From Candidatus Thiovulum imperiosus (GTDB lineage Bacteria; Campylobacterota; Campylobacteria; Campylobacterales; Thiovulaceae): a stretch of 64,000 bases of DNA. The notes below the pieces were generated by a model. The model had not been told where the DNA came from. It worked only from the letters and a program-made list of their open reading frames with translations, and ran no database searches. Each line of letters starts with the position of its first letter. The stretch's first letter is position 1. The position numbers and the translations under genes are program-made. Location of the stretch: assembly GCA_024281175.1 (NCBI GenBank), contig JAMJTW010000014.1:131675-195674 (forward strand), read 5' to 3'. Positions 7,836 to 32,844 of the stretch are shown here, piece by piece.

Positions 7836-10800
7836 TTATTTCAATTTGATAATTGTCTCTCCCTCTTCTTTTCCAAAGTTGATAATTTGGGGCTTCTGTT
7901 CATATTTGGTTACTCTCTGAACATAGTTTTTTACATAAAGAGCTAGGTCTGTAAAAGTTGCAAAGCCGTCACCATCTTCATCAGCCATTCTATCTTCCAA
8001 AGCATTTATTACACCTTGAGCAAAAGGAGAGTGGTTGTCACTACCATCAGAAACAGGTTCATCATCTCCAGCAGTTAGAACAAAACTCGATTTCTTGTTT
8101 AGAAGATTTTTATAATGTTCATTACCTCTTACTATTTTTCTCTCATTACCTCGAAGTTGTGTCGCTAATCCAGAAAAGCATGAGTCTAAAAGAAGAGCTA
8201 CATGGTTTTGAGGCATTTCACTTGCCGTATTTTGTAGCCTATCTATGGAGATAGCATTCGATTTTGCATAACTTGAGTAGGTTGGATTGCTTAAAGAGAC
8301 TGTACTATTATAAGGAAGAATATACCCATGTCTAGCACCTGTTTTCTCTATGGTAATACCTTGACCATGTCCAGCATAATAGAAAATAAAGCTGTTGCTT
8401 TCACTAGTATCAATATCTACTTCAGCTTTTTCCATCTCATCAAGAATTCTCTCTTCAGTAGCATCGCTACCCAAAAGAAGAGTTACATCATAGCCCAAAT
8501 CTCTGAAAAGTTTTGCAACTGCTCTTGCGTCATTTTCAGCATTTTCTAAAGGTTCAATAGCACGATTTCTATATCTATTAATTCCAACAACTATCGCTTT
8601 TTGTCTCTTATACCAATTTTGAATATCTGGAAGAACATCAGGAATTTCAGCAACTAGATTTAGAGGGTAATTAGTAGGGTTTCCAAATCTATCTCTTGCG
8701 TAAATTTCAACTAAATTGTTTCCATTTACAAGTTCTAATTCAAACTCGAAACTACCATCACCATAAAGAGGAATAGTTACACCATTAACTGTTGCTAAAG
8801 TAATTCTGCTCTCATCTCTAATTTCTCCTTGGAGAATACATTTGTTTGTAAAAAATCTTCTACCATCTGAAAAGACCTCATCACTATTTTGAGCCGTTAG
8901 TATTCTCTCTCTCTCTCTTTTGGAATAGCATCTTGCAGAAATTATAGGACCACTATCATCTGGATTTATAGAATTTCCACCTGTAAGATGTGCATAAAAT
9001 CTATGGTCAGTCTGTATTGCAACAGTTATAGCATTATGTCCTTGATGGTTCTCTATATACTTATCAGCACCAAGCTCTAAAATTTCTACTACTTTTTCAA
9101 AATCTCTAAGTCTGATGAGGTGGATAAGTAGCGTATCTCCATTTCTATCTTGAACATTTTGATTTCCACCGTTTCGAACAAAGTTGATAATTCCCTCAGC
9201 ATCTCCCAATCGCATATGGTGTTGAACCCTTATGAAATCTGCCATTTTAGAATTTCCAGCTACATCAAGAACTGTATTCTCATTTCTATCTTCAACATCA
9301 ATATCAGCACCATTTAAAATTAGAGCTTGAGCAACTTCTAAACTACCAAATTGAGAAGCTAAAAAGAGAGGTGTTCTTCTATCATCATCTCTCTTATCTA
9401 TCTCATCTTCTTTTTCCCATTTCTCTTTAATGCTCTCTTTTCCATATTTAAGAATGTAGTTCACAATGTTTCGATGCCCATCTTTAGAGGCGTAGTGTAG
9501 AGCGTTCCAACCCTCTTCATCAGGTTTTGCAACTTTACCACTCGCTTCAAACAGAGTTTTAAAAATATCTAAATTTCCAGTTTCAGCAGCATAATGCATT
9601 GGAATTTTATCTCCAACATCATCTTGCTCATTCACTTCAAAACTTCTAATTTGACCCTCTTCCAATCTCTCTTCAACTTCTAACAGTTTTCTAACAATAT
9701 TTCCATACTGTCTCAAAACAGCATGGTTTATAGCCATTCTATCGTTTGCATCTTTTTCTCTAATATCTGCACCATTATCAATTAGAAGTTCAGATACTTT
9801 TGGAAAACCGTTTCGAATTGCTAAAATTAGAGGAGTATTACTATTACTATCTTGTAAATTTAAATCTCTCTTTTCTCTATTTACAATTTTCTCTATAACA
9901 GACAAGTACCCTTTTTTAGAAGCTATATGAATTGGATAATCACCATTATCATTCTTCTCATCTATTTTTACTTCTAAGTCTAAAAGCAGATTTGCGGTTT
10001 CTCTATTTTGGTGAATTAGAGCTAAGTGAAGTGGACTATTCTCATTTTTATCTTCAATATTTTTATTAACACCTTTTCCAATGAGAAATTTCACAATACT
10101 GTCTTGTCCCTTTTTGGAAGCGATATGTAGTGGAGCTTCTCCTCTCTTATCTTTTGCATTTAAATTCTTCATAGCAGAAATGAGTTCTCTACCAATTTCA
10201 AACTGTTCATTGTTTAAAGCGATATGTAGTGCGGTCTCTTTCTCTCCATTTTCAGCATCTGGATTTGCACCTTTTGAAAGTAGTGCTTTTACAGTTCTAA
10301 AAGAGTTTTTCTCTGTTGCTAAGTGAATAGGGAAAGTATCATCTTTTGCTCTATTTAATTTTGCACCAGCATAAATAATCTTTTCAGCTAAGTCTTCTAA
10401 ATTATTTTCTATTGCATAATATAGAGGGAAGTTCTCTTCAAGATTTGCTCCATATTCTATAAGAATTTCCGCAATCTGTTTTTGACTATTTCCTTGTTGC
10501 AAAGTGTGAAATAGCGGTGTAATATCACTGTTTTTAACATCAGGATTTGCCTTTTTCTCTAAGAGCATTTTTACAATATCAGGTCTATCCTGTATTACTG
10601 CTACAAACAGTGGTGTTAAATCATCTTCATTTTGACTATTTAAATCTACTTTTGCATTTAAAAGAAGCTCTATAATTTCAACTCTCTCCTGCTTTACAGC
10701 AATGTGAAGAGGAGTATTTCCCTTATTATCTTTTGTATTTAAACCAATCTGTTCAGCAATTACAAAACCTATCTTCTCTATACTCATATCAGGGTGATTT

Positions 10801-10937
10801 AACATATAGTGAAGAAGATTATCTTTATGCTCTTTTTCAAGAGATACAAGTTCGCTTTTATAAGGTTCTGGGACATTTTGAAATTTTGAGCAACTTATAA
10901 AAAGTAGAGGTAGTAAGTATATGAAATATCTTTTCAT
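7836..10937 (-). CDS. Lipoprotein with about 20 ankyrin repeats, a beta-sandwich-like linker and a C-terminal caspase-like (peptidase C14) domain
   Basis: Start placed at MKRYFIYLLPLLFISCSKF (lipobox). The track ORF extends to 11072 across a repeat. Ankyrin consensus G.TPLH.A....IV..LL..GA recurs throughout. The C-terminus has KAIVVGINRY...FIFYYAGHGQG...ALLLDSCFSG (His/Cys dyad context). Confidence 0.85.
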   Translation of the reverse strand: MKRYFIYLLPLLFISCSKFQNVPEPYKSELVSLEKEHKDNLLHYMLNHPDMSIEKIGFVIAEQIGLNTKDNKGNTPLHIAVKQERVEIIELLLNAKVDLNSQNEDDLTPLFVAVIQDRPDIVKMLLEKKANPDVKNSDITPLFHTLQQGNSQKQIAEILIEYGANLEENFPLYYAIENNLEDLAEKIIYAGAKLNRAKDDTFPIHLATEKNSFRTVKALLSKGANPDAENGEKETALHIALNNEQFEIGRELISAMKNLNAKDKRGEAPLHIASKKGQDSIVKFLIGKGVNKNIEDKNENSPLHLALIHQNRETANLLLDLEVKIDEKNDNGDYPIHIASKKGYLSVIEKIVNREKRDLNLQDSNSNTPLILAIRNGFPKVSELLIDNGADIREKDANDRMAINHAVLRQYGNIVRKLLEVEERLEEGQIRSFEVNEQDDVGDKIPMHYAAETGNLDIFKTLFEASGKVAKPDEEGWNALHYASKDGHRNIVNYILKYGKESIKEKWEKEDEIDKRDDDRRTPLFLASQFGSLEVAQALILNGADIDVEDRNENTVLDVAGNSKMADFIRVQHHMRLGDAEGIINFVRNGGNQNVQDRNGDTLLIHLIRLRDFEKVVEILELGADKYIENHQGHNAITVAIQTDHRFYAHLTGGNSINPDDSGPIISARCYSKRERERILTAQNSDEVFSDGRRFFTNKCILQGEIRDESRITLATVNGVTIPLYGDGSFEFELELVNGNNLVEIYARDRFGNPTNYPLNLVAEIPDVLPDIQNWYKRQKAIVVGINRYRNRAIEPLENAENDARAVAKLFRDLGYDVTLLLGSDATEERILDEMEKAEVDIDTSESNSFIFYYAGHGQGITIEKTGARHGYILPYNSTVSLSNPTYSSYAKSNAISIDRLQNTASEMPQNHVALLLDSCFSGLATQLRGNERKIVRGNEHYKNLLNKKSSFVLTAGDDEPVSDGSDNHSPFAQGVINALEDRMADEDGDGFATFTDLALYVKNYVQRVTKYEQKPQIINFGKEEGETIIKLK

Positions 10938-11067
10938 AAAAAATCCTTTTTCTATAAAATCGTTTACTCTAATTTTAAAGTTAAGTTTTTTTATATTTTT
11001 AAGAAATTGGAACCAAAGTTTTAGGAAGTAACCAAATAAGGTATTTTTACACTTTTGCAACCTATAT

Positions 11068-11200
11068 GTCATTTCGAACCCTTTTGGGTGAGAAATCTTT
11101 TACATCACTTCGAATAAAACGATAAGTTTCCAAGATTTCTCAATCACTACGCTCATATCGAAATGACAAGTGAGATAGAAGTCTATTTAGTCACTCCCGA
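11068..11200. repeat. Type A palindromic repeat plus flank module, inverted relative to the 7596-7714 copy
   Basis: The reverse complement aligns along its whole length with 7596-7714 (CGGGAGTGACTAAATAGACTTCT...TTGTCATTTCGATATGAGCG...GAGAAATCTT...AAGATTTCTCACCCAAAAGGGTTCGAAATGAC). Confidence 0.9.
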
Positions 11201-11222
11201 ATTTTGGTTCCAAATGTGTAGT

Positions 11223-11966
11223 TTACATACTTAAACCACCATTTACTTTCAAGACTTCACCTGTAATATATCCAGCTCCATCAGAGAGAAGAAATGCCGT
11301 TGCTTCAGCAACCTCTTTTCCAGAACCAAATCTTTTTAAAGGTATATTTGAGATATAAGCCTCTTTAATTTCCTCTTTCAACTTTCCAGTCATATCTGTT
11401 TCAATAAATCCTGGAGTTATAGAGTTGAAGCGAATTCCTCGTGCTGCTCCCTCCTGTGCAAAACTCTTTGTCATTGCAATCATTCCACCTTTTGAAGCAG
11501 AATAGTTTGTTTGCCCAGCATTTCCAGTTTCACCAACAATAGAAGCTATGTTTACAACAGAACCAAATCTCTTCTTATTCATAACTTTTAACGCTTCTCG
11601 AGAGCCGTAAAAAGATGAGTTCAAATTTGCTTGAATCACAGAATCAAAATCTGAACCTTTCATTCGAATTGCTAATTTATCATTTGTGATTCCAGCATTG
11701 TTTACAAGATAAGAGAGTTCACCATCAGATTCAACAATCGCTTTTATTCCAGCTATAAACTCATCTTCATTTGAAGCGTCAAAACCAATGACGGCGGACT
11801 GAAGTCCTTTTTCAGAAAGTTCTGCATGTAATTTGTCAGCTTCTTCATGAGAGCTTCGATAGTTTATCCAAACTTTAAGACCATATTCTGCTAAAACTCT
11901 GGCGATTTCAGAACCAATACCTCTACTGCTACCTGTAACTAAAACATTTTTTCCACTAAATTTCAA
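11223..11966 (-). CDS. fabG: 3-oxoacyl-[acyl-carrier-protein] reductase
   Basis: 247 aa SDR. TGSSRGIG cofactor motif, NAG, Y-x3-K (YSASKGG). Confidence 0.9.
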   Translation of the reverse strand: MKFSGKNVLVTGSSRGIGSEIARVLAEYGLKVWINYRSSHEEADKLHAELSEKGLQSAVIGFDASNEDEFIAGIKAIVESDGELSYLVNNAGITNDKLAIRMKGSDFDSVIQANLNSSFYGSREALKVMNKKRFGSVVNIASIVGETGNAGQTNYSASKGGMIAMTKSFAQEGAARGIRFNSITPGFIETDMTGKLKEEIKEAYISNIPLKRFGSGKEVAEATAFLLSDGAGYITGEVLKVNGGLSM

Positions 11967-11974
11967 ATTTTCTC

Positions 11975-12307
11975 CTAACCTAAGGCTTCTATTTTATTTT
12001 TGAGAGATTCGACCTCATCTTCTAATCTCTTTTTCTCAAATTTAAGAGTAGAGTGAGATTGACGAACACCCTTTAAATCACTTTTGATACTTAACATTTC
12101 TGAAGTAACTATATCAACATTACCAATTGACCGTTGAAGTTGAACTTGATATTTTCGAATTAGAGCTTCAGCTTCTCTCAAGGTAATTCTCATCGTTTTT
12201 GTACCGTCTTGCTCTCTCTCAACAAGGTTTTTATAGAAAAGAACTTGAAGATATAAAAATATTGCAACTATTGAAACAATAGTTAAAAGCGACCATTCAA
12301 GAAACAT
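11975..12307 (-). CDS. Membrane-anchored coiled-coil protein, function unknown
   Basis: N-terminal hydrophobic helix followed by heptad-like charged sequence. Tightly packed between rpiB and fabG. Confidence 0.5.
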   Translation of the reverse strand: MFLEWSLLTIVSIVAIFLYLQVLFYKNLVEREQDGTKTMRITLREAEALIRKYQVQLQRSIGNVDIVTSEMLSIKSDLKGVRQSHSTLKFEKKRLEDEVESLKNKIEALG

Positions 12308-17142: not shown

Positions 17143-17322
17143 AAAATTTAAATCCTCGATTTTTTAGAGAGCTTGATAAGTTGAAGTAGCTCCCTATAAA
17201 TTTGGAGAAATAAGGTGTAAATAATTTTTTCGCAAACTCCTATAAATCCATTTTATAGGAACTACGGATAATCAACTCTCTATATCTTTCACACTTTTCG
17301 GTGTAGCCAACATTTTACCAAA

Positions 17323-17336
17323 AATGATTAATCATT
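17323..17336. promoter_or_regulatory. Perfect 14-bp palindrome AATGATTAATCATT, Fur-box-like
   Basis: Resembles the core of the classical Fur box (AATGATAATCATT) with one extra central base. It lies 17 nt upstream of a TATAAA(AT) -10-like hexamer at 17354. Confidence 0.25.
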
Positions 17337-17445
17337 CTCATTTTTCGGCATTCTATAAAATGGTATGTAAATTCTAGAAGAAAGACTTTAAAAGAGTAGA
17401 TGGTTTGAGTGTGGAATAAGAAATCTTTTCAAGTTTTAGCAAATG

Positions 17446-17483
17446 CAAAGAGTCTTTTTCTTATGACTCTTTGTTCGTTTTTT
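17446..17483 (+). terminator. Hairpin plus T-tract with plus-strand polarity
   Basis: CAAAGAGTC-10 nt loop-GACTCTTTG followed by TTCGTTTTTT. On the minus strand the hairpin is not followed by a U-tract. Confidence 0.35.
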
Positions 17484-17498
17484 AAGAGAGGATGGTAA

Positions 17499-17882
17499 TT
17501 AGTTCACAACAACTAAATTGAAATTTAAAGTATCAAACTCTTCTTGAAACTCTTCACCGCTCTCTTTTCCATAATCATTTTCAATGTTATATTTCCAATA
17601 TATTTGGATATCACGACCTTCATCTTGAGCATCTTCAAAAAGTGTGAAGAAGTCAAATAGAAGTTTTGAAGAGCTTGAGTTGAAATATGCTATTTCAAGT
17701 TCTACAATAATTGGTTTTTCACTCTCTTCTTTAAGAAACTCTTCAATCCAATCCATAGTTTCATGGTAAAACTCAAATGTGTTTTCTGGATAAGAAGAGC
17801 CTCTAATTTTGATATTTCTATCAAATGGGTCTAAGATAATTTCAGGAGTATATTTTGTTTCTGAAATATGTATTTTCTCCAT
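17499..17882 (-). CDS. SiaC-like regulatory phosphoprotein (DUF1987)
   Basis: 127 aa. TKYTPEI...IKIRGSSYPENTFEFYHETMDWIEEFL...EIAYFNSSSSKLLFDFF...IYWKY. As I recall it, this aligns end to end with P. aeruginosa SiaC (SYPEN, DW.E.FL, Y.NTSS.K). Confidence 0.8.
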   Translation of the reverse strand: MEKIHISETKYTPEIILDPFDRNIKIRGSSYPENTFEFYHETMDWIEEFLKEESEKPIIVELEIAYFNSSSSKLLFDFFTLFEDAQDEGRDIQIYWKYNIENDYGKESGEEFQEEFDTLNFNLVVVN

Positions 17883-17890
17883 TTTAAATC

Positions 17891-18409
17891 CTAAATATAA
17901 GCTATGATTTGGAAAAACATATGTTCACCTTTTTCAGCTATCTCATACTCAATTGGTTCACTTGCTCTTCTTGCTATCTCAATTAAACCTAATCCAGCAC
18001 CTTCATTTTCAACATCTCTATCATCTCTTCTTGTTTGAAGATAGAAATCTTTCAATTCACTTTTGCTCATAACTTGAAGTTTTCCCAATTTTTGAGTTAT
18101 ATTTGGAATATCTTCTTCATCAATATAGTTTCCTGAACCGACAAAATATCTCTCTCTCTTTTTAGAATATCCCATAATAAATAGTCCTAAATTATCATGG
18201 TCTTTTGCATAATTTATCATATTCTGCATCTGTTCTGTAAATATTGAAAATATATCTGTGATAGTTCTTCTAGGTACATGCAAATCTTGAAGTTTGCTCT
18301 CAATTGCACTACCAAGTCCAACAAGTACAGTTTGTGTAACTCTACCGCTGAAACTAAAAAATATTCCATCTTGCTCTAAAATGTTGTGAGCATCTAATAA
18401 ATTTATCAT
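17891..18409 (-). CDS. SiaB-like small GHKL-type protein kinase (anti-sigma-factor-like)
   Basis: 172 aa. C-terminal GAGLGLIEIARRASEPIEYE. Sits directly upstream of the DUF1987 gene, with a 4-nt ATGA overlap with the upstream kinase gene. Confidence 0.6.
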   Translation of the reverse strand: MINLLDAHNILEQDGIFFSFSGRVTQTVLVGLGSAIESKLQDLHVPRRTITDIFSIFTEQMQNMINYAKDHDNLGLFIMGYSKKRERYFVGSGNYIDEEDIPNITQKLGKLQVMSKSELKDFYLQTRRDDRDVENEGAGLGLIEIARRASEPIEYEIAEKGEHMFFQIIAYI

Positions 18410-19215
18410 AAAATTCCCTCATGAATAGATATTGTAAACATAGCTCCACAATCTACATTTTCAACAGATATCTTTCCGCCAAAATCTTTAACTATCTGTT
18501 TTGTCATATACAAACCAACTCCTGTTCCATTCTCTTTTGTTGTAAGGTTTTCTTCAAATATTTTATCAATTATCTCTACTGGAATTCCGCCACCATTATC
18601 TTTAACAATTAGTGAAAAAAGACCATATTTTTGAGAAATACCAATATCAATTTTCCTATCTTTTATACTATTCTCAATAAAAGCATCTTTAGAATTATTT
18701 ATTAGATTGATAATTATATGTTTGAAGTCATTCTGAACACCATAAATCATAAAATCAAAATTTTCTTCTAAAACGACACTTATCTGATTACCTTTTATAA
18801 CATCTTGAAGAATATGTAAAGCTCCAGAAACACTCTCTTTTACTGAAAAGAACTCTTTTGTTCGATTTGGTCTTAAAAACTCTCGAAACTCATCTAAAGT
18901 ATTTAAAAGATGATTTATCTGTAATTCTACTTTATTAGAGAAATTATTAATATATTTTTCATCAACATCACCATAACTGTAATCGTGTAAAAGCATCTGA
19001 TTGTAGAGAGAGATGATAGAGAGAGGCTGTTTCCATTGATGGGCAATAGCATCAACCATCTCTCCCATAGTAACTTTTCTTGATTGCTCTTTGATACTTC
19101 TTTTTATAGAACGGAACTCTTCAAAGAGATTTTCAAAAAACTCGATATCCTCTTTTGAGAAATCTTTTTTATTTAAAATATTTTTAGCAGTAGCAATTTT
19201 TTTATTCAATTTCAT
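18406..19215 (-). CDS. Cytoplasmic sensorless histidine kinase (DHp + HATPase only)
   Basis: H-box AIAHQWKQPLS, N-box INLINNSKDA, G-boxes VKDNGGGIP and GTGVGLYMTKQIV. No TM segment or sensor domain in 269 aa. Confidence 0.8.
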   Translation of the reverse strand: MKLNKKIATAKNILNKKDFSKEDIEFFENLFEEFRSIKRSIKEQSRKVTMGEMVDAIAHQWKQPLSIISLYNQMLLHDYSYGDVDEKYINNFSNKVELQINHLLNTLDEFREFLRPNRTKEFFSVKESVSGALHILQDVIKGNQISVVLEENFDFMIYGVQNDFKHIIINLINNSKDAFIENSIKDRKIDIGISQKYGLFSLIVKDNGGGIPVEIIDKIFEENLTTKENGTGVGLYMTKQIVKDFGGKISVENVDCGAMFTISIHEGIL

Positions 19216-20422
19216 TCACTACCTTTTTAAAGATTTCACCTCTCTCAATATAAGATTTGAATTGGTCTTTACTTGCACAAGCTGGAGATAGAATAGCAAA
19301 ACTTTTTTTAGAGTGTTTTTTAGAAATTTGAGAAATGGCTTGTTCTAAAGTTTCAGATTTTACAAAAGGTATATTAAACTCTTTTGAGAAATTTGAGAGC
19401 ATGGAAACACTTTTTCCAATACCAAAAACTTCAACTCTTTTCTCTTTTAGGATTTCAAAAAGAGGCTTAAAATCAGCATCTTTATCATCTCCGCCTAAAA
19501 TTAGATACAACTTCTCATCTTTAAAACTTTCTAAAAGTGCAATAGTAGAGTCTACATTTGTAGCTTTACTATCATTTATCCAAACTCTACTTTTGGCATC
19601 TAAAATTTTCTCTTGCCGATGAGGTAGCATTTTATAAGAGTTTATCTTCTCATAATCTACCTCATCAAAAAGAATTTTTGAAGTTGCTAAAGCTAGTAGT
19701 GCATCTAAAAGAAAAGCTCCATTGAAATCTATTTTAGAACTATCCAAATTTAACTTTTTTGCTAAATCCTCACTATTTTTATAAGAGATGATATACCCAT
19801 CACTCTCAACATCAGCAAACTCTTCTGGAATTATTGCAACTTCTCCCTCTCTTAAAGTTTTAAGTGGCTTCAACTTACTCTCCACATACTTTTCAAAAGA
19901 GCCGTGCCAATCTGCATGGTCATCTTTTATAGGTAGTAAAATGTAGATATTTGGTTTTGCATGTTTTGTGTAGTGTAGAGTAAAAGAGCTTGTTTCAAGA
20001 ACCCAAATTGAGGAATCTGAACTCATTTTTCCTAAAGGAGTTCCTATATTTCCTCCGCTCTCTGCATATCTCTCTTTCAAAAGTAGAGTTATCATCTCCG
20101 TAGTTGTCGTCTTTCCGTTTGTTCCACTCACCCAGATAGAGAATGGAAACTTCTTCTCTAAATAGAAAAGGTCATATTCACTTATCACCTCACCTTTAAA
20201 ATTTGTGAAAACTTCGTTTGTTGGCGGAACTCCAGGTGCTGGAATCAAGTAAGAGTCTTTTTTCGGTTTTTTTGGAAACTTAGATGAGTGAAAACATCTC
20301 TTTTCAACCAACTCTCTATCATCATAAACTTTATTAATTCTAAACTCTTTTGCAATAGCACAGGTTGTTTTTCCATAGCCAAACAGATAGAGCTGTTTCT
20401 TTACTTTTTTTTCCATTTGCAA
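19202..20422 (-). CDS. murD: UDP-N-acetylmuramoylalanine--D-glutamate ligase
   Basis: GTNGKTTTTEM P-loop. Mur ligase middle and C-terminal domains. 406 aa. Confidence 0.9.
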   Translation of the reverse strand: MQMEKKVKKQLYLFGYGKTTCAIAKEFRINKVYDDRELVEKRCFHSSKFPKKPKKDSYLIPAPGVPPTNEVFTNFKGEVISEYDLFYLEKKFPFSIWVSGTNGKTTTTEMITLLLKERYAESGGNIGTPLGKMSSDSSIWVLETSSFTLHYTKHAKPNIYILLPIKDDHADWHGSFEKYVESKLKPLKTLREGEVAIIPEEFADVESDGYIISYKNSEDLAKKLNLDSSKIDFNGAFLLDALLALATSKILFDEVDYEKINSYKMLPHRQEKILDAKSRVWINDSKATNVDSTIALLESFKDEKLYLILGGDDKDADFKPLFEILKEKRVEVFGIGKSVSMLSNFSKEFNIPFVKSETLEQAISQISKKHSKKSFAILSPACASKDQFKSYIERGEIFKKVVNEIE

Positions 20423-20452
20423 AATTCTATCAAAAACTACTTCTATAACTTT

Positions 20453-21040
20453 TTAAAATATATAGATAAGAAATTTGAAGAATTCTGGAATAAAATCTAA
20501 GAGTCCCTGTTCACTTTTCCACCAATTTTGAGGAGTATAAATTCTGCTTTCTGCTCCTGCTATTTCAATATCTGCTCTGCCATCACAATATTTCCAGAAA
20601 GCAAAATAGGCTCTTCTAGTGTGGAACTGGTCAGTAACAACTATCACTCTTTCCCAACCCTGAGTTTTCTGGTATTCACAAAAATCTAAAACTTCATCTT
20701 TTGTACTTGCAGCTGGTTTCTCTCGATAAGGAATTTTCTGAATTGGAATGTTGTGGTACTCTAAAATCATCTCTCCAATCTCTCTTTGAGTCTGTATAAA
20801 ACTATATTTATCAGCAATATCTATTGGAGAAGTTAAATATATTTGAGAAGAGTAACCATCTTTTAGAAGTTCTATGGCTTTATCAACTCTGGTTTCATTT
20901 CTCCCTCCCAACACTAAAATAGCATCAGCACCTTTTGTAGCATTTTCAAAAATGAATAGATTTGCATATCCCTCCAATAGTTTCTCTCTAAAGAGAAAAA
21001 GGAGAGATATAAAAAGTAGAAGTAGTAAAATTTTCTTCAA
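20453..21040 (-). CDS. DUF218 (YdcF/ElyC-like) membrane-anchored protein
   Basis: N-terminal TM helix. ADAILVLGG ... VIVVTDQFHTRRA motifs. Confidence 0.7.
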   Translation of the reverse strand: MKKILLLLLFISLLFLFREKLLEGYANLFIFENATKGADAILVLGGRNETRVDKAIELLKDGYSSQIYLTSPIDIADKYSFIQTQREIGEMILEYHNIPIQKIPYREKPAASTKDEVLDFCEYQKTQGWERVIVVTDQFHTRRAYFAFWKYCDGRADIEIAGAESRIYTPQNWWKSEQGLLDFIPEFFKFLIYIF

Positions 21041-21043
21041 AAC

Positions 21044-23119
21044 TTACTCTGTAACACATAAGATATAGAGTGAGTTTGAAACGAAACCATCATCACTGCT
21101 AGAGCCATCATTGAACGAGATTTTCCACTTGTAGTTTTCATTATCAGATACAGGAGTACTACTCCAATACCAGTTGTCATATCTAATATTTTCAAAAATA
21201 CTATCTACAAATGGTCTCTCGCTTCTCTTCTGGTTTGCAATAGATTGCAACTCTTCAATAGTTGGTAATTTCCAATCATCTCGACCTCCAAAAGTTCGTT
21301 TATCACAAAATTCTTTTGCATATTCAAAATCACCACTATTAACTTCTACCTCATCAATCCAGTAGAGGTTATGAGTTGTATCAAGTACAATACTGTTTTT
21401 ATCATCTCTCTGAAATGTCAAATCTTCATAAGATGAAACTCCACGAACACATCGTACAAAAGCCTCTTCCTCTTTTTCACGCCAATCATCAAAACCTTCA
21501 TATCCAGAAACCACCCAAGCCTTACTACCTGTTTCATTGTGAAGACCTGAATAGGTAACAAGTTGATTACTCCAAAAGAACTCATCTTTTAAGAAATGAA
21601 ACTCCTTATCAATAGTTGGAATACCGATATCTCGGTCACTAAGATACCAAAGTTCTTTAAATGTTGGAACTCTCCAATCTGACTTTCTATCAAGTGTAAG
21701 CTCCTCACAATACTTCTCAGCAAATTCTAATGTACCAAAAAAGAGGTTTTCTTTATAATCTTCCCACTCTAAGCCTCTACCATTTGAGACAACTCCATTT
21801 GAATTTCTACTATACTCAACATCTACTCTTAGAAAAGTCGAATTTGCCTCTCCCTCTTCAGAAACTTGCATACTTCCACTCTCTTCTGTCGCTATCTTCC
21901 AATAATCTATATCATTCAAACTTATGTATGAGTGTTGAACTTCTCCTAAATTCAAGATATAAGCATAAGATAACTTATCATTTGGTTCTAAACTACCGCT
22001 ACCTATATTTTTATCTGGTGATGTAAGGTTGATGTTGTTATTATCAGCACCAATACCGTAGTAGGTTTCACCACCCTCAACAGAATTTACAATTGCAAGT
22101 ATATAAGGTGTATCCTCTTTTTGAAGTGGTAATTCCATAGAGAAATTTCTGCTATTTAGTAAAAAGACCTCATCACTATTTGGATAGTATAAAACTCCTT
22201 TCAAATCAGAAACAGACTCTATATGGAGCTTGAAATTATCTTTATGAACTCTAATAGGAATGTATTGCACCCACTCTCTATTGTCATCATCTTTGATTTT
22301 TACAGTCAAATTGTAATCTTTTGCATTTTCACTCTGCTTTGGAAATTTGAGATGGACAAGAGTCTCTCTACTCTCTTCGCTACCAAGTGGTCTAGTCAAG
22401 TAGTCTTGGTCTACCGTAGCACCCTCAATAGAAACTCGTATCTCAACTCCTTCAGCTCGAACACTACCTATGTTCTTAACAGTGACAGTGCCGTCATACT
22501 GCTCTCCACCGCTATATAAAAAATCAGCATTTGTTTGAAAAGTTGCTTGAAAATTTGGAGCATTACTTTCTGCAAGTTGCAAATCCAAATACTCATCTTC
22601 TCTTTTCAAATCTAATTCCAAATCTAAGTAACCAAATTTAGAATTTACTGAAGCTGTATAGACTCCAGCTGGTAAAGAGCTATTCTTAAAAGTTCCGTTT
22701 TCATCAGTTACTACTGTTGCAAAAATATTTTCATCGAGAATGTTTCTTAAAATCATCTCAACACCAACAGCGTCTACGAAATCTTTTAACTCTTTCTCTT
22801 CGAAATAGCTGTTGTCAAAAAAGATATTTCCACTAAGATTTACATTTCTGCTACTCTGTCTAAGATATACAGTTTCATCAACTTTTATCACATTTTCAGC
22901 AACAGTTTCTATTTCTATCTTTTCAGTTGTAATATAGAGTTGGTCGGTAGCATCTTCGACATTTATCCAGCTTCCCCAATATGCGCTATTTCTTATCGAG
23001 ATATTTTCCTCTGGTTCTGACTCTTTAATTAGAGTTGTAGAAGAGCTACTGTTTCCACTACAACCTAAAAAAAGAAGAGGAATTAAGAAGATATAAAACA
23101 TAATTTTCCCTTTTAACAC
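21044..23119 (-). CDS. Lipoprotein with CARDB-like and pre-peptidase C-terminal (PPC)-like domains and two C-terminal DUF1566 domains (likely start 23101, MFYIF...)
   Basis: Lipobox LLFLGC. TVTVKNIGSVRAEGVEIRV (CARDB-like). EPNDKLSYAY...DIDYWKI (PPC-like). Two copies of A..YC..L......DWR.PT..EL ... CV. Confidence 0.75.
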   Translation of the reverse strand: MLKGKIMFYIFLIPLLFLGCSGNSSSSTTLIKESEPEENISIRNSAYWGSWINVEDATDQLYITTEKIEIETVAENVIKVDETVYLRQSSRNVNLSGNIFFDNSYFEEKELKDFVDAVGVEMILRNILDENIFATVVTDENGTFKNSSLPAGVYTASVNSKFGYLDLELDLKREDEYLDLQLAESNAPNFQATFQTNADFLYSGGEQYDGTVTVKNIGSVRAEGVEIRVSIEGATVDQDYLTRPLGSEESRETLVHLKFPKQSENAKDYNLTVKIKDDDNREWVQYIPIRVHKDNFKLHIESVSDLKGVLYYPNSDEVFLLNSRNFSMELPLQKEDTPYILAIVNSVEGGETYYGIGADNNNINLTSPDKNIGSGSLEPNDKLSYAYILNLGEVQHSYISLNDIDYWKIATEESGSMQVSEEGEANSTFLRVDVEYSRNSNGVVSNGRGLEWEDYKENLFFGTLEFAEKYCEELTLDRKSDWRVPTFKELWYLSDRDIGIPTIDKEFHFLKDEFFWSNQLVTYSGLHNETGSKAWVVSGYEGFDDWREKEEEAFVRCVRGVSSYEDLTFQRDDKNSIVLDTTHNLYWIDEVEVNSGDFEYAKEFCDKRTFGGRDDWKLPTIEELQSIANQKRSERPFVDSIFENIRYDNWYWSSTPVSDNENYKWKISFNDGSSSDDGFVSNSLYILCVTE

Positions 23120-23958: not shown

Positions 23959-25002
23959 TTACACAGGAGTCGGTTTTCCAAAATAGAAACCTTGAACAAA
24001 ATCAACTCCAATACTTTTGAGAGTTTTAAACTCTTCAATTCTCTCTATTCCTTCAGCTAGAACCTTAATTCCATTGCTGTTTGCTATATCATAAAGAGCT
24101 TTATAAACAGATTTTTTCATTGGACTTTTATCTATTTCTGAAATTATATTTCTATCAATTTTAATAATATCAGGTTTCATATCAATAAGAAGATTTAAAT
24201 TTGAATACCCCTCACCAACATCATCAAGAGCAATTTTAAATCCCTGCTTTTTATAGAAATTTAAGATTTTTTGTAGATGTTTCTGGTCTTTTACAAGTTC
24301 TGTTTCAATAACTTCAAAAATGATATTTGAGAAATTCAAATTTAGTTTTTTTGCAATTCCCATTGTTGTCTGCAAACAGAACTCTGGGTCATAAATTGCT
24401 GTTGGCATAAAATTTATAAATATCTTCTTCTCTATTTTTGAATTTGATGCACTCTGTAAAGCTGTCTCTCTGCAAACTCTATCAACCATAAAATTTAAAT
24501 CATTTCGAGCAGTCTTCTCAAAAAACTCATTTGGATACATGATAGAGCCATCAGATTTTATACCTCTAATTAGAGCTTCGTATCCAAATAGAGTGTCACT
24601 CTCTACTTCTAAAATAGGTTGGAAATAGGAGGTTAGATTTCTCTTTTCCAAAATATCAAAGAACTCCCTATCTTCAACATGATTTAAAAATATCTCAAGT
24701 GATTTTGAAAAGAGAACTGAACGATAATTCAGTTTCTCATTTTCTGTTTCAATAAATAGTTTTATAACCTCCTGCTCTATTTGACTAAAACACTCCTTGA
24801 ATTCTTTAAAAAAGTTTTGAAGAAACTGTTCTGGATTTTTACAAGAAATTTTTATAAGGTCATCTGTTTCACTATAAGCTATTTCTAATTTAGAAAAACA
24901 TCTCTCTATTTTCTTTTTGATTTCATCAAATTCTGAAATAAAATATATAGCACTACTTTTTCTTGGTAAATTTAAATATGGGTTGCATTTTTGACATGAC
25001 AT
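23959..25002 (-). CDS. EAL-domain c-di-GMP phosphodiesterase with an uncharacterised N-terminal domain
   Basis: YFQPI...GYEALIRG, FINFMP, FEVIE, ALDDVGEGYS, IKID, AEGIE, QGFYF. The catalytic set appears complete. Confidence 0.85.
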   Translation of the reverse strand: MSCQKCNPYLNLPRKSSAIYFISEFDEIKKKIERCFSKLEIAYSETDDLIKISCKNPEQFLQNFFKEFKECFSQIEQEVIKLFIETENEKLNYRSVLFSKSLEIFLNHVEDREFFDILEKRNLTSYFQPILEVESDTLFGYEALIRGIKSDGSIMYPNEFFEKTARNDLNFMVDRVCRETALQSASNSKIEKKIFINFMPTAIYDPEFCLQTTMGIAKKLNLNFSNIIFEVIETELVKDQKHLQKILNFYKKQGFKIALDDVGEGYSNLNLLIDMKPDIIKIDRNIISEIDKSPMKKSVYKALYDIANSNGIKVLAEGIERIEEFKTLKSIGVDFVQGFYFGKPTPV

Positions 25003-26109: not shown

Positions 26110-26688
26110 CTAATCTAAGTTGTTTTCACCTAAATCATCTTTGTAGAAGTCTCTCAAAGCACGAATTACAATCGCATTTTTGGAGATACTCTCACTTTTA
26201 GCTGCTATATCAACTCTCTCATAAACATCAAGAGGCAGAGAAATTGAAAAAGTTTTTGTCTCAATTTTCTTTCTTCTCTTGATAATATCTGTGATGGCTG
26301 TAAGCAAATCTATGATTTTATCAGTATCAATTGGTTTTTGAATAAAGCTATTTACACCAATCTCAATTGTTTCAGAGATTTTTGTAATATCATTACTTGC
26401 AGAGATAATTACAATTATCTGCTTTCTGTTTATCTCTCTAATTCTTCGAGAGAGAGTAATACCGTCCATTCCGTCCATGATAATATCAACAAAGACTACA
26501 TCTGGTCTATATTTCTGGTAAATTTCAAATCCATCTTTACCATTGTATGTAGAATAGACATCAGAAAAGAAATTTGAAAAAGTTGTAGAGAGAAGTCTAT
26601 TTGCCTCTTTCTCATCTTCAACTATCATCGCTGTTAATTTTTTTGTCTCTTCTGATAATCTTACTAAATCAAAACTCTTCTTTTTCAT
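26110..26688 (-). CDS. Response regulator: receiver domain fused to a C-terminal ribbon-helix-helix (CopG/Arc-like) domain
   Basis: MIVEDE...DVVFVDIIMDGMDG...FIQKP (REC). C-terminal SISLPLDVYERVDIAAKSESISKNAIVIRALRDFY (RHH pattern). Confidence 0.7.
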   Translation of the reverse strand: MKKKSFDLVRLSEETKKLTAMIVEDEKEANRLLSTTFSNFFSDVYSTYNGKDGFEIYQKYRPDVVFVDIIMDGMDGITLSRRIREINRKQIIVIISASNDITKISETIEIGVNSFIQKPIDTDKIIDLLTAITDIIKRRKKIETKTFSISLPLDVYERVDIAAKSESISKNAIVIRALRDFYKDDLGENNLD

Positions 26689-26903
26689 TTCACCATACCT
26701 TGTAGAGTTGAAATAACATCAGTTAAATTTTCATAAGGAATATGCACTTTCCAATCTGGCTCATCTCCATTTAAAGAGATAGCAATAGAAACAACAGGGT
26801 CGCTATTTTGACCATAAGGCTCTTTTAGTTCTCCAATAGAAATTGTTCCATCTTTGGTTCCAGCTAAAGAAAATTCCTCTTTTATCTCTAATATTCCAGA
26901 CAT
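26685..26903 (-). CDS. Small hypothetical protein (72 aa), translationally coupled between lpxD and the response regulator
   Basis: 4-nt overlap with the downstream gene and a 2-nt gap after the lpxD stop. I recognise no family. Confidence 0.45.
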   Translation of the reverse strand: MSGILEIKEEFSLAGTKDGTISIGELKEPYGQNSDPVVSIAISLNGDEPDWKVHIPYENLTDVISTLQGMVK

Positions 26904-27891: not shown

Positions 27892-28365
27892 TTAGAAACC
27901 AATTTTACCAAAAATAATATCTCTATGGTTTACAAATCTGTCACAGCGACTACCTTCGAGTTCTAAACAGACTCTCTGCCACTCTCTGCTGTGACCATCT
28001 TTACCATCATATTTACCAAACTTGAAAAGTAGAGCGTGAGCAAACTCATGAGGCATTACATCATCTATCATATAATCTAAACTCTCTTTAAGTCTACTTC
28101 TATTCAAAACTATTTCAACATTTTCACCATCAAAAATAGTTACACCATACATACTTGGATGAAGTTTTTGAAGAGAGAGAGGAGCATCTAATTTATATGA
28201 GTAGAGATGCTCTATTCTTTCTAAAATTCGTCTCTCTTCAATATCTATTTTCTCTAAAACCTCATCAGGAATGCTATTTTTCCACTTACTACTCTCGTAA
28301 AAATTTAGAATTAGAACAACTGCTCCAACCCCAACCATTCCAAAAAATAGAGTTTCTAACTTCAC
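27892..28365 (-). CDS. SprT-like zinc metallopeptidase-domain protein with an N-terminal TM helix
   Basis: HEFAH (HExxH) in a SprT-like context, plus a C-terminal Cys/His cluster. Confidence 0.55.
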   Translation of the reverse strand: MKLETLFFGMVGVGAVVLILNFYESSKWKNSIPDEVLEKIDIEERRILERIEHLYSYKLDAPLSLQKLHPSMYGVTIFDGENVEIVLNRSRLKESLDYMIDDVMPHEFAHALLFKFGKYDGKDGHSREWQRVCLELEGSRCDRFVNHRDIIFGKIGF

Positions 28366-29738
28366 TAATTGTCTCTAATACAAGTAGTAAGTATCTTTCT
28401 GCTTGAGCTATCCCAAGTATCCATTCCAGTTGTAGTATTTAAGTTCCAAAACTTATTTCTATTTGTAATAAAATTTGTGCTAGACCAGTACCAGTTTGGC
28501 TTGATATTTTCAAACTTTGAACATATTTTTCCACTGTTCGTAATAGAGTATAATTCTTCAATTGTTGGTAGTCTCCAGTCTGACTTATTTAGAAATACTA
28601 AATCTTGACAGAAGAAATTTGCATCTTTCCAATTTTTACTTCTACCACTACTTTGGTCAAACCACATTTTTCTATTTTTACTATCTAAAACTGTACCATC
28701 ACCACTATTTGAAAAGTCCCCATATTTCTGAATAGAGCCTCTTACACATCTTGCGTAATGGAGACTACTCCTCTTTAAAATTTTGTCAGAACCAGTTTTA
28801 ATATCAACTCCATAAACTCTATTTCTGTCTATTTCACTACCACTCCAATATTTGTCGCTGATGAGGTCTACTGATTTACTACCCTTTTCTCGATTTACAA
28901 CATGCCAAAGCTCTTTTAAAGTTGGTAGTCTCCAATCATCTTTCCCATCAAATATAAGTTCATTGCAGTAACTTTTTGCTTCAGGATAAATACCTTTATA
29001 GCTTCTGCTATTTTGCCACTCAAATTTTACTTCTTCACTCTCTACTATTAGTTCATCTTCTAAAATATCTGGAGAGTCATTAAATAGAATTACAATTTTA
29101 TCTCCATAATAGTTCACCCATTTTGAAACTTTCTCTCCATTTTGAGTTGTAATAGTAATGTTATACGGTTTCTCTCTCTCAAGAGGCATTCCCTGTTTAA
29201 ATTGAAGAACACCCTCTATCTGAATTTTCGGATTTGGAACATCTGTTTCAATATATATTTTTGGATATACAAAGTTGTAAAACTTCAAAAAAAGCTCATA
29301 ATCTCTATACTTTTTAAAATTCTCTTTTGTATCTGGATATCTATTTGAGACAAAAGTTCCATACTCTTTTAATTCATCGTAAGGATACTGTCCATGATGT
29401 CCAATAAAAATCTGATTTCGCTTGAAAATACTTTTGAAATTTCTGGTATCATAATCACTATAATTGAATTTTACTTCTCTTTTTGGAACTTCTTCCTTTT
29501 CTGAAACATCGCCATAACCTTCTGTTACTAATCCACCTTCAGGCATTGGAAATGGTAAACCTATATCTGAAATAGAGTTAATTGTATTTAGAGATTTCTC
29601 TTCTTGTTCAGGGTAAGTTTGTGGTGTAAATCCATCGTTTTGTCTCAACTTTTTTAAGTTGTTTCCTATCGCTTCTCCATCATCTGAAGAGAGTTGAAAA
29701 GTTAATAAAAATATTGTAAATAGAACTTTTACAAACAT
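28365..29738 (-). CDS. Secreted protein with two C-terminal DUF1566 domains
   Basis: Signal peptide. AKSYCNELIFDGKDDWRLPTLKELW...ARCVRG and ANFFCQDLVFLNKSDWRLPTIEELY...TTCIRD. Confidence 0.75.
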   Translation of the reverse strand: MFVKVLFTIFLLTFQLSSDDGEAIGNNLKKLRQNDGFTPQTYPEQEEKSLNTINSISDIGLPFPMPEGGLVTEGYGDVSEKEEVPKREVKFNYSDYDTRNFKSIFKRNQIFIGHHGQYPYDELKEYGTFVSNRYPDTKENFKKYRDYELFLKFYNFVYPKIYIETDVPNPKIQIEGVLQFKQGMPLEREKPYNITITTQNGEKVSKWVNYYGDKIVILFNDSPDILEDELIVESEEVKFEWQNSRSYKGIYPEAKSYCNELIFDGKDDWRLPTLKELWHVVNREKGSKSVDLISDKYWSGSEIDRNRVYGVDIKTGSDKILKRSSLHYARCVRGSIQKYGDFSNSGDGTVLDSKNRKMWFDQSSGRSKNWKDANFFCQDLVFLNKSDWRLPTIEELYSITNSGKICSKFENIKPNWYWSSTNFITNRNKFWNLNTTTGMDTWDSSSRKILTTCIRDN

Positions 29739-31672: not shown

Positions 31673-32713
31673 CTATTTAAAGATAAGTCCATTTAACCAA
31701 CTTGCCACTTTTTTGAAAGAAGCATTCTTATTTCCATCTTCATTAGAGAGTCTATTTTTAAATTGAGTTTCAAACCCTAAGTGATAAATACCATCTGCTA
31801 TTTTGTTTATAGCATTTTTTCCAAAGAGTTTCCTTTTTGCACCATCATTTTGAACTAAATGAAAACCTGTCTCTTCTCCAACCTCATCATCTCCATGTAG
31901 TTCTGCCCACTCTGTGGCGTAATTTGTAGAGAGATAGGAGTTCAATTCTCTAATTTCATCAGCTACGATTTCACCATCATTTGTAACTCCAGTAGCATAA
32001 ATTGCTTCCAGAAGAATTTTATTCATCTCATCAGCACTTTTTGCTCCCTCTCTAATATCTCCTGTTGATACTCTCTTTTGAAGTCCAACATCTGTATAGA
32101 TGATTTCGATAATATCATCTAATCCAGTATTAGTTGAACCTGTCACCTCAACAACACTACTATTTGAGAGAGACTCTAAATCATCTATAAGAAGAGAATT
32201 TAGCCAATTTGCTACCTTTTTAAAAGATGCATTTTTATTATCATCTTCATTTAAAAGTCTATTTTTTCGGTGAGTCTCAAAACCTAAGTGATAGATACTA
32301 TCTGCAACTCTATTTATCGCATTTTTTCCAAAAAGTTTTGTTCTTGCTCCATTATTTTGGACAAGATGAAAACCACTCTCTACACCATCTTCATCATCTC
32401 CATGTAGAGTTTTCCACTCTTCTGAGTAGTTTGTATAAATGAAATTATTTATCTCTCTAGCATCAGAAGTAGAAATCTCTTTATCATTTGCAAGTCCATT
32501 CTCAAAAATAGCTTCAAGAATGATAGAGTTCATTCTATCAGCAGAGTAGATAGCCTCTTCTATCGCATCTCCAGTAACTCTACTGTTGAGTGTGCTATCT
32601 GTATCGATAATTTCAATAATTTTGTCTAGTCCTGTTCCAGTTTCTGCTGAAAGAGTAGAAGATAAAAGAAGCGATGCTGTTGTAACTGATAGTATAAATT
32701 TCGAATTTTTCAC
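31673..32713 (-). CDS. Secreted protein made of two tandem repeats of about 160 aa, function unknown
   Basis: Signal peptide (GTG start). Repeat 1 TGLDKIIEIIDTD...GFHLVQNNGARTKLFGKNAINRVADSIYHLGFETHRKNRL...NKNASFKKVANWLNSL versus repeat 2 TGLDDIIEIIYTD...GFHLVQNDGAKRKLFGKNAINKIADGIYHLGFETQFKNRL...NKNASFKKVASWLNGL. Confidence 0.7.
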   Translation of the reverse strand: MKNSKFILSVTTASLLLSSTLSAETGTGLDKIIEIIDTDSTLNSRVTGDAIEEAIYSADRMNSIILEAIFENGLANDKEISTSDAREINNFIYTNYSEEWKTLHGDDEDGVESGFHLVQNNGARTKLFGKNAINRVADSIYHLGFETHRKNRLLNEDDNKNASFKKVANWLNSLLIDDLESLSNSSVVEVTGSTNTGLDDIIEIIYTDVGLQKRVSTGDIREGAKSADEMNKILLEAIYATGVTNDGEIVADEIRELNSYLSTNYATEWAELHGDDEVGEETGFHLVQNDGAKRKLFGKNAINKIADGIYHLGFETQFKNRLSNEDGNKNASFKKVASWLNGLIFK

Positions 32714-32734: not shown

Positions 32735-32826
32735 TTGGCAAACCTGTTAAGAAGTTCAACGCAACTTGGCAATCTCATTGAGACCCATAGCTTTCCGTCC
32801 TTGCTTCACAACAAGTTTGGCATCTA
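32735..32826 (-). promoter_or_regulatory. Candidate c-di-GMP-I (GEMM-I) riboswitch in the 5' leader of the 31673-32713 gene
   Basis: Minus strand reads UGCCAAA-CUUGUU-GUGA-AGCAAG-GACGGAAAGC-UAUGGGUCUC... This parallels the Vc2 aptamer as I remember it (GGGCAAA-CCAUUC-GAAA-GAGUGG-GACGCAAAGCC-UCCGG). The 3' segment GGUUUGCC can pair either with the 5' GCCAAAC or with the RBS region AAAGGGCAAAUC-GUG. Confidence 0.45.
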
Positions 32827-32844
32827 AAATAGATATCGGCAGTA

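Follow-up and report, generated by a model that had tools for sequence, protein, structure and literature searches.

How does a histidine kinase (HK) without any sensor domain come to stand in one gene cluster with a Ser/Thr partner switch? This question is raised by three genes on the reverse strand of a 64,000-nucleotide (nt) stretch of DNA from Candidatus Thiovulum imperiosus (contig JAMJTW010000014.1; the whole stretch is hereafter called the window), which encode, in this order, a sensor-less HK, a SiaB-family kinase and a SiaC-family phospho-protein. The sole characterised relative is the SiaABCD system of Pseudomonas aeruginosa (PMC7647112, PMC8457831, PMC12834913), in which genes PA0172-PA0169 encode the PP2C phosphatase SiaA, the kinase SiaB, the phospho-protein SiaC and the diguanylate cyclase SiaD. 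A first-pass annotation of the window had proposed that the HK takes the place of SiaA and SiaD in an undescribed wiring, in which the HK either feeds the switch or is acted upon by SiaC. The analysis presented here leads us to favour, tentatively, the view that the trio is a reduced Sia-type switch with the HK as its regulated output.

The trio is located directly downstream of murD (19202..20422(-); UDP-N-acetylmuramoylalanine--D-glutamate ligase, TIGR01087, 310.7 bits), the upstream gene of the unit, and consists of the genes for the HK (18406..19215(-), 269 aa), the SiaB-like protein (17891..18409(-), 172 aa) and the SiaC-like protein (17499..17882(-), 127 aa). As read from the sequence, the HK gene shares its first 14 nt with the end of murD and its last 4 nt (ATGA) with the start of SiaB, while SiaB and SiaC are spaced by 8 nt; an AGG/GAGG-type Shine-Dalgarno sequence is present upstream of every start in the trio. 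The earlier description of three coupled open reading frames (ORFs) behind murD, including their coordinates and the 14-nt overlap, was therefore exact.

Judging by its sequence and predicted fold, the first product is a two-component histidine kinase, having H, N, G1, F and G2 boxes and a DHp/CA fold; the assignment draws on Pfam, NCBIfam, a PDB match, an alignment and an AlphaFold2 model. The Pfam scan detected HATPase_c (66 bits) and HisKA (23.8 bits, slightly under the gathering score of 26.9) and no domain beyond these two, and the protein aligned with HK853-type kinases in the PDB (E=2e-21). Its H-box, AIAHQWKQPL, contains the predicted phospho-accepting His59 (codon 19039..19041(-)), as placed by alignment with HK853, and the catalytic boxes are complete (N170/N174, D206-x-G-G-G210, F220, G230-x-G232-x-G234). 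Residues H59, N170/N174, D206, G210, F220 and G230/232/234 were invariant across an alignment of 35 sequences. The monomer model (mean predicted local distance difference test score 82) consists of a helix (residues 2-16), a short loop, a continuous helix (21-80) that bears His59, a second DHp helix (86-114) and the CA domain. Neither the Pfam scan nor the model revealed a sensor domain, and there is no room for one; a start further upstream is not possible. Thus, the protein is indeed a DHp plus CA kinase lacking an input domain, as had been noted.

The SiaB-like product scored 144.5 bits against NF038262 ('SiaB family protein kinase', cut-off 85) and 116.7 bits against PF19788 (cut-off 26.6), and matched SiaB in PDB entry 6KKO (chain A) with E=2e-14. 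It keeps the catalytic Glu59, the Mg-binding Asn63 and the G-box G137-A-G-L-G141, of which Glu59, Asn63, G137, A138 and G141 were invariant in a 25-sequence alignment; the predicted catalytic residue of P. aeruginosa SiaB is E61 (PMC7647112). The product of 17891-18409 is accordingly classified, on sequence, as a SiaB-family GHKL Ser/Thr protein kinase, with activity on SiaC predicted, and the earlier reading of it as a GHKL-type kinase, which hung on such scores, holds. The SiaC-like product, which had been recognised as a DUF1987 protein, scored 126.2 bits against PF09345 (cut-off 24.5), with residues 6-125 on profile positions 1-119/120, and aligned with SiaC of the STAS-like structures 6K4F and 6KKO across residues 2-116 (E=2e-21). 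In the family alignment its N68-S69-S70 falls on N67-T68-S69 of P. aeruginosa SiaC, so that Ser69 (codon 17676..17678(-), within the invariant Y-F-N-S-S-S) occupies the position of T68, the phospho-site mapped in peptide LLYLNTSSIK (PMC7647112). The first-pass comparison of FNSSSSK in the window with LNTSSIK in SiaC proved correct. The phospho-site motif is identical in all 16 family members aligned, and the window protein retains all family-invariant surface elements, namely Y-F-N-S-S-S and the acidic alpha-3 'GEEFQEEF'. Neither protein reached its equivalog cut-off (SiaC against NF038265, 109.3 bits, cut-off 150; SiaB against NF038264, 94.1 bits, cut-off 225), indicating that both are family members and not orthologues of the Pseudomonas type.

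Partners of the trio were sought with hidden Markov models (HMMs) built from the neighbours of related loci and run on every frame of the 64 kb. No SpoIIE/PP2C, GGDEF, HD-GYP or class III cyclase was found in any frame. Within the 64 kb SiaB and SiaC are thus accompanied neither by a PP2C phosphatase (SiaA) nor by a diguanylate cyclase with the helical stalk of SiaD, in agreement with the first-pass remark that these two are not adjacent. In the 356-nt spacer after SiaC (17143-17498) no HD-GYP remnant was detected by tblastn and six-frame reading, RNase Y giving the sole weak match with its HD domain. A search of metagenomes by means of a PP2C alignment, aimed at the SiaA of the same organism, returned 80 loci, none of them from the Joint Genome Institute samples of the window. 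No response regulator gene adjoins the HK either; the nearest receiver gene (26110-26688(-)) lies 7 kb upstream, beyond six other genes, so that the observation of no cognate receiver nearby stands. An EAL protein encoded 5.5 kb from the trio (23959-25002(-)) had been put forward as an example of a GGDEF/EAL protein; it is EAL only, without GGDEF and without the stalk motif described below. Its 115-aa N-terminal region is of unknown type.

The link between the HK and the switch was then followed in related loci, and it is conserved across relatives, the point at which the first-pass proposal could have failed. Identical synteny was found in more than 20 mangrove-metagenome contigs of the same species. 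The closest homologues of the window HK are 48-53% identical to it, and the murD-HK junction is kept in five related lineages (with synteny in L087, L088/89, L090 and L099/100). Locus L088/89 has the order murD-HK-SiaB-SiaC-HD-GYP (HK of 331 aa); L090 has murD-HK-SiaB followed by ribH, without SiaC (HK of 293 aa); L087 and L099/100 have murD-HK only. In L182 (HK of 258 aa) accD is followed by HK-SiaB-SiaC and a gene for a stalk protein (HD-GYP), which begins '…RILKQSDRQQIELDRYK', nearly the same as the start of the L088 HD-GYP protein. Locus L093/94, whose HK is 44% identical to that of the window, has the order SiaA(SBP+SpoIIE)-HK-SiaB-SiaC-HD-GYP, and the overlap of HK stop and SiaB start recurs in L093. 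The SiaB and SiaC proteins of the window are closest to those of L088/89, L090 and L093/94 (43% and 51% identity). As these are also loci that keep the HK link, the trio was passed on as a unit. Elsewhere in the HK subfamily, some members are orphans (L091, L095, L098) and others stand beside a PP2C only (L097, L101). Within the murD-linked clade the HK is retained where SiaB and SiaC have been lost (L087, L099), as would be expected if SiaB/SiaC modulate the HK. In L090 (6001-7425) the catalytic motifs of SiaB are intact, SiaC is missing and ribH follows 43 nt on; this orphan SiaB beside an HK is the main hint of a direct relationship between HK and SiaB.

Comparison of these loci indicates that the full Campylobacterota-like cassette is SiaA (a PP2C sensor)-HK-SiaB-SiaC-HD-GYP, of which the window, by gene content, is a cut-down derivative; cassettes of this Sia type are widespread. 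Since the HK coexists with SiaA and HD-GYP in the fuller cassettes, it does not replace SiaA and SiaD, contrary to what had been proposed. Behind the murD-HK(-SiaB-SiaC-HD-GYP) block, the relatives L088 (3930-6427) and L099 (6841-9285) encode a GT4 glycosyltransferase together with a protein of some 470 aa that matches PelD_GGDEF weakly, which suggests that the ancestral cassette was linked to exopolysaccharide control; such genes are not beside the trio in the window.

Two censuses were carried out to place this arrangement more widely. One was anchored on SiaB (one genome per species, SiaB alignment as query, the 80 loci that come closest to the SiaB of the window; ORFs were called, neighbours clustered and representatives checked with Pfam), the other on SiaA (the 80 loci of the metagenome search mentioned above, whose query was an alignment of the Campylobacterota SiaA PP2C domain). 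Both are biased towards relatives of the query, and the fractions describe the samples and not bacteria in general. In the SiaB-anchored set SiaB-SiaC pairs were near-universal and most loci contained a SiaA-like sensor-PP2C. The SiaD position was held by a class III nucleotide cyclase in 40 of the 80 loci; a short HisKA/HATPase_c kinase stood beside SiaB/SiaC in 20 (Azospirillum, Magnetospirillum and others), a GGDEF protein in 16, ten of these in tandem after an HK, and an HD-GYP protein in four (Sulfurimonas). In the Sulfuricella locus L069 the gene immediately preceding SiaB encodes an HK that matches the window HK with E=1e-45, the same arrangement as in the window. The SiaA-anchored set contained 15 loci (of 80) of the type SiaA-HK-(SiaB-SiaC-HD-GYP), about 20 of the type SiaA-SiaB-SiaC-HD-GYP and two of the type SiaA-SiaB-SiaC-HK, and the HK was directly upstream of SiaB in 13. 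In the Alphaproteobacteria a short HK occupies the SiaD position while SiaA is still present, which again argues against the HK replacing both. The cyclase loci, such as L013, in which a class III adenylate/guanylate cyclase with the stalk 'RLMRLSDRNE' comes after SiaC (10956-11999), predict a so far uncharacterised output from SiaABC to cAMP or cGMP. In addition, PP2C and SiaB HMMs matched one and the same long ORF (for example of 1367 aa) in L111, L126, L116, L122, L150 and L177, which suggests that these are candidate natural SiaA-SiaB fusions.

A further comparison concerned the output enzymes. Whatever their catalytic domain (HK, cyclase, GGDEF or HD-GYP), they share an N-terminal helical module of about 60 residues with the core 'R-R-L-V-R-(I/L)-S-D-R-x-Q' (HMM matches with E=1e-11 to 1e-28), and most HKs that adjoin SiaB/SiaC start with this motif. 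When a GGDEF protein bearing the module was aligned with SiaD (PDB 7E6G), the core fell on SiaD 'RISDGFQ', of which SiaD has a second copy, 'RISDRYQ'. In the crystal S50/Q54 and S82/Q86 of SiaD form hydrogen bonds with T68 of SiaC, and phosphorylation of T68 breaks this contact (PMC8457831). The position of the core on the residues of SiaD that contact SiaC thus identifies the module as a SiaC-docking stalk, and HKs that bear it are predicted targets of SiaC. The stalk is also found on many short HKs of Campylobacterota, with E=3e-9 for P0150 and about 5e-5 for Halarcobacter HKs; the motifs there include 'IKQSDKMQ' and 'VKQADKQL'. Together these results suggest that a two-component kinase can come under the control of a Ser/Thr partner switch, and the first-pass idea of SiaC acting on the HK gains comparative support at the level of the family from this shared motif.

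The window HK itself fits this scheme less readily. Its region before the DHp domain is only 48 residues long (residues 1-48, 19072..19215(-); helical according to the AlphaFold2 secondary structure and compared with the stalk by HMMs and alignments). A general stalk HMM (63 positions, built from 44 outputs) was run on 6238 ORFs; run on the window alone, it gave the HK as the best match (E=0.015), and residues 1-42 scored 13.7 bits, a value reached by none of 2000 shuffles. The extension may be a shortened remnant of a SiaC-docking stalk, a point on which this HMM and a second one described below disagree. The only likeness to the S…Q pair is S40-I-K-E-Q44, which has basic flanks and is not conserved in relatives. 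The nearby 'EQSRK' (residues 43-47) was considered as an equivalent of 'QSDKQ' and rejected, as it aligns with the DHp lead-in 'QQSKMAAMGEM'; the stretch 'EQSRKVTMGEM' belongs to a lead-in that every HK of the subfamily has, including those with other sensors.

Several observations weigh against the HK being the output of this switch. By inspection, residues 1 to about 40 contain no (S/A/G)-D-(R/K)-x-Q motif. In the search of the 6238 ORFs the window HK ranked 84, directly after all true outputs, at an E of 0.27, and with a Campylobacterota-specific HMM residues 1-42 scored 3.1 bits, which was reached by 411 of 2000 shuffles. Two multiple alignments disagree on which part of the stalk the N-terminus corresponds to. 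In L088 and L182 a perfect motif, 'RILKQSDRQQ', is present on the HD-GYP protein encoded right after SiaC, and the window has no HD-GYP protein. As no PP2C is encoded within the 64 kb, the step that resets the switch is missing locally, and no receiver is adjacent at the locus. Finally, no fusion of SiaC to an HK was present among the best 120 SiaC homologues, all of which are stand-alone proteins of 110-139 aa.

On balance, the output reading remains the one that we tentatively prefer. SiaB would phosphorylate SiaC on Ser69. Unphosphorylated SiaC would dock on the dimeric helical segment in front of the DHp domain of the HK and would shift the balance between its autokinase and phosphatase activities, as SiaC does on the stalk of SiaD, whereas phospho-SiaC would release the HK. 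The HK would then signal to a response regulator encoded elsewhere, and the phosphatase that resets SiaC would likewise be encoded outside the locus. The contact of SiaC (or SiaB) with this particular HK, the direction of the signal and the trans-encoded phosphatase and receiver are the parts of the model that we infer. In this model the trio is proposed to be transcribed now together with murD. A stronger version, which we regard as doubtful, is that SiaB/SiaC directly gates the HK as a minimal trio without a dedicated PP2C or a c-di-GMP (cyclic di-GMP) enzyme in the operon, SiaC being a universal plug-in regulator of a portable 'R-I-S-D-R-x-Q' stalk on HKs, class III cyclases, GGDEF and HD-GYP proteins.

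The missing motif on the window HK leaves some room for SiaB/SiaC serving a stalk enzyme encoded in trans (HD-GYP, GGDEF or cyclase) together with a SiaA-type PP2C, with the HK as a syntenic passenger or an uncoupled branch. All SiaC surface elements are kept, so that the protein has probably retained its affinity for a basic S…Q helix, which is absent from the window HK; the L088 and L182 HD-GYP proteins right after SiaC would be targets of just this kind, and a c-di-GMP-I riboswitch and the EAL protein indicate that the organism uses c-di-GMP. However, neither the target nor the phosphatase was found in the 64 kb, and the overlap and order of HK and SiaB recur in at least three lineages whose HK has a short N-terminus (the window, L090 and L182), which is more than one would expect from simple inheritance. 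We therefore consider a trans-encoded target unlikely, while giving it real weight. A motif on the HK would not be needed if the anti-sigma-like SiaB held the HK in classical sequestration and unphosphorylated SiaC freed it by capturing SiaB, so that HK-SiaB would be the core of the system. The conservation pattern lends itself to this: HK-SiaB is the most conserved junction, with a stop/start overlap in the window and L093, it occurs in the 13 SiaA-anchored loci and in Sulfuricella L069 with the HK directly upstream of SiaB, and in L090 it persists with intact SiaB motifs and without SiaC. In the sole studied system, however, the contact with the effector is made by SiaC on SiaD and not by SiaB on a target (PMC8457831), and in Alphaproteobacteria the HK comes after SiaC and carries the SiaC-docking motif; sequestration by SiaB thus appears distinctly improbable.

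The stepwise reduction across the murD-linked clade and the shortened stalk of the HK could also be the marks of a decaying remnant, in which SiaA and HD-GYP have been lost and SiaB/SiaC are idle and on their way out, as happened in L087 and L099 and in part in L090. The state of the genes speaks against this: the two ORFs are unbroken and retain every catalytic and phospho-site residue, more than 20 metagenome contigs from many mangrove samples carry SiaB and SiaC without any difference, and translational coupling and Shine-Dalgarno sites are in place. We give decay a small chance only. Smaller still, to the point of being barely credible, is the chance that the HK is an input, as the other half of the first-pass proposal had it, feeding phosphoryl groups or a conformational change into the Ser/Thr switch through SiaB or a receiver-PP2C and replacing SiaA as the sensor. 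The HK does hold the slot directly upstream of SiaB, and the HptB-HsbR-HsbA pathway is a precedent for His-Asp signalling that feeds into a partner switch. Against this, the HK has no sensor domain and SiaA proteins with periplasmic SBP, CHASE8 or PAS sensors coexist with the HK in the fuller cassettes, which disfavours an input role; moreover, neither SiaB nor SiaC contains a receiver domain, and such HKs bear the stalk motif typical of outputs. No comparative support was obtained for this half of the proposal.

With the HK as the tentatively preferred output, the locus can be compared with known systems. It resembles SiaABCD in having the SiaB kinase and its SiaC substrate adjacent and in the same order, in the N-(T/S)-S site, in the Glu, Asn and G-box residues of SiaB and in the expected logic, by which unphosphorylated SiaC would bind the helical stalk of a dimeric enzyme. 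Unlike SiaABCD, the window lacks SiaA and SiaD in its 64 kb and has an HK upstream of SiaB, its proteins are not orthologues (they score below the equivalog level), and the neighbouring enzyme lacks the S-D-R-x-Q motif. With the five-gene cassettes (L093/94, L102, L105, L106, L110 and others) it shares the HK subfamily (AHQWKQPL, 41-53% identity), the HK-SiaB-SiaC order on one strand, overlapping junctions and the closest SiaB and SiaC sequences, but it lacks the PP2C sensor and HD-GYP genes at the ends, is attached to murD, and has an HK whose N-terminus is about 40-60 residues shorter and devoid of '(Q)(S/A)DKQ'. The SiaA-SiaB-SiaC-HK(-GGDEF) loci of Alphaproteobacteria (Azospirillum, Magnetospirillum; L026, L055, L075 and others) also have a short sensor-less HisKA/HATPase_c kinase adjoining SiaB/SiaC; there, however, the HK takes the SiaD position behind SiaC, its stalk has the canonical 'R-x-SDR-x-Q' motif, SiaA usually accompanies it, and a stalk-GGDEF protein or a hybrid kinase/receiver often comes next. 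The HptB-HsbR-HsbA-HsbD (P. aeruginosa), RsbU/V/W and SpoIIE/AA/AB switches likewise combine a GHKL Ser/Thr kinase with a STAS-like antagonist whose phosphorylation selects the partner, and they too show cross-talk between two-component systems and partner switches. They act on sigma factors or a cyclase and not on an HK, though, and SiaC belongs to DUF1987 and is not a canonical STAS protein; in the HptB-HsbR case the His-Asp relay acts upstream of the switch through a receiver-PP2C, whereas the window HK is more likely downstream. Small proteins that bind the DHp domain or adjacent helices and thereby set the activity of a sensor-less or soluble HK are also known (Sda and KipI on KinA, FixT on FixL, PII on NtrB). 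None of Sda, KipI, FixT and PII is known to be switched by a dedicated Ser/Thr kinase or to be related in sequence to SiaC.

A full-text literature search returned nothing on DUF6272 or on SiaB-like or SiaC-like proteins in other contexts, and no description of HK, cyclase or HD-GYP outputs wired to SiaB/SiaC; the SiaD structure paper goes no further than the suggestion that proteins with DUF1987 'modulate the activity of adjacent proteins'. The wiring was thus rightly called undescribed, in that no paper found in this search reports an HK connected to SiaB/SiaC, but it is a reduced derivative and not a distinct design. The locus is most fittingly classed as a new, reduced form of the Sia-type partner switch with an HK partner, and it is not unique to the window: the trio is a pared-down representative of a broad class that has gone unstudied, and the window HK itself lacks the motif for the straightforward mechanism. 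The comparisons indicate that one and the same switch has been joined to at least four classes of enzyme by way of a single portable docking helix, and in about a quarter of the sampled loci the attached enzyme is a sensor-less HK. If SiaC (or SiaB) does set the activity of the HK, this would be an uncharacterised direct bridge from Ser/Thr phosphorylation to His-Asp signalling and would explain how some 'input-less' orphan kinases obtain their signal. The window trio, with its short stalk and no local phosphatase, would then be a natural test of what the docking helix must contain and of operation without SiaA.

Variation within the species was inspected with two haplotypes (the window against L082/L083/L086). 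Over 20.5 kb there are 44 substitutions between them, every one located in a single tract of about 3 kb (~18500-21500), comprising the 5' part of the HK gene, murD and a DUF218 gene, and this looks like an imported recombination tract. The changes in the N-terminal helix of the HK include N12K, D23E and I24M. SiaB and SiaC are identical across all contigs and both haplotypes; with all differences outside these two genes, no ratio of nonsynonymous to synonymous substitution rates is computable for them.

The transcription unit may possibly end at a hairpin found by RNA folding about 20 nt 3' of the SiaC stop (17440..17477(-); -11.5 kcal/mol, z=-2.4, no U-tract), which is separated from rny (RNase Y) by about 300 nt of non-coding DNA. 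A terminator scan did not call this hairpin, and matches in generic promoter and terminator scans were no more numerous than in shuffled sequence. Among sequencing runs, the locus was present in DNA runs of mangrove metagenomes only, and in no RNA runs.

Some other features of the window touch on the same signalling pathways. The receiver gene 26110-26688(-) encodes a 192-aa protein with a REC domain and a weak ribbon-helix-helix match and comes after a 72-aa ORF (region 26110-26903), and a second, unrelated HK of 353 aa is encoded at 61335-62396(+); no evidence was found that pairs the HK of the trio with this receiver, nor any pairing evidence for the second HK. The c-di-GMP-I riboswitch (32757-32831(-); RF01051, 55.5 bits, E=4e-8) lies directly upstream of an ORF of 346 aa without Pfam match (31673-32713(-)), and the gene upstream of the riboswitch (32845-34068(-)) encodes a GT4/GT1 glycosyltransferase. 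Possibly, c-di-GMP controls a surface-polysaccharide gene here. Eukaryote-like repeat proteins are encoded at 7836-11072(-), 1054-2664(-), 59395-61296(+), 21044-23119(-) and 28365-29738(-); they comprise a 1078-aa ankyrin-repeat protein, two leucine-rich repeat proteins, of which one is a fusion with a GGACT domain, and two proteins with an Lcl_C domain. Such repeat proteins, which are unusual in free-living Campylobacterota, hint at an association with a host; the source samples are without exception mangrove metagenomes.

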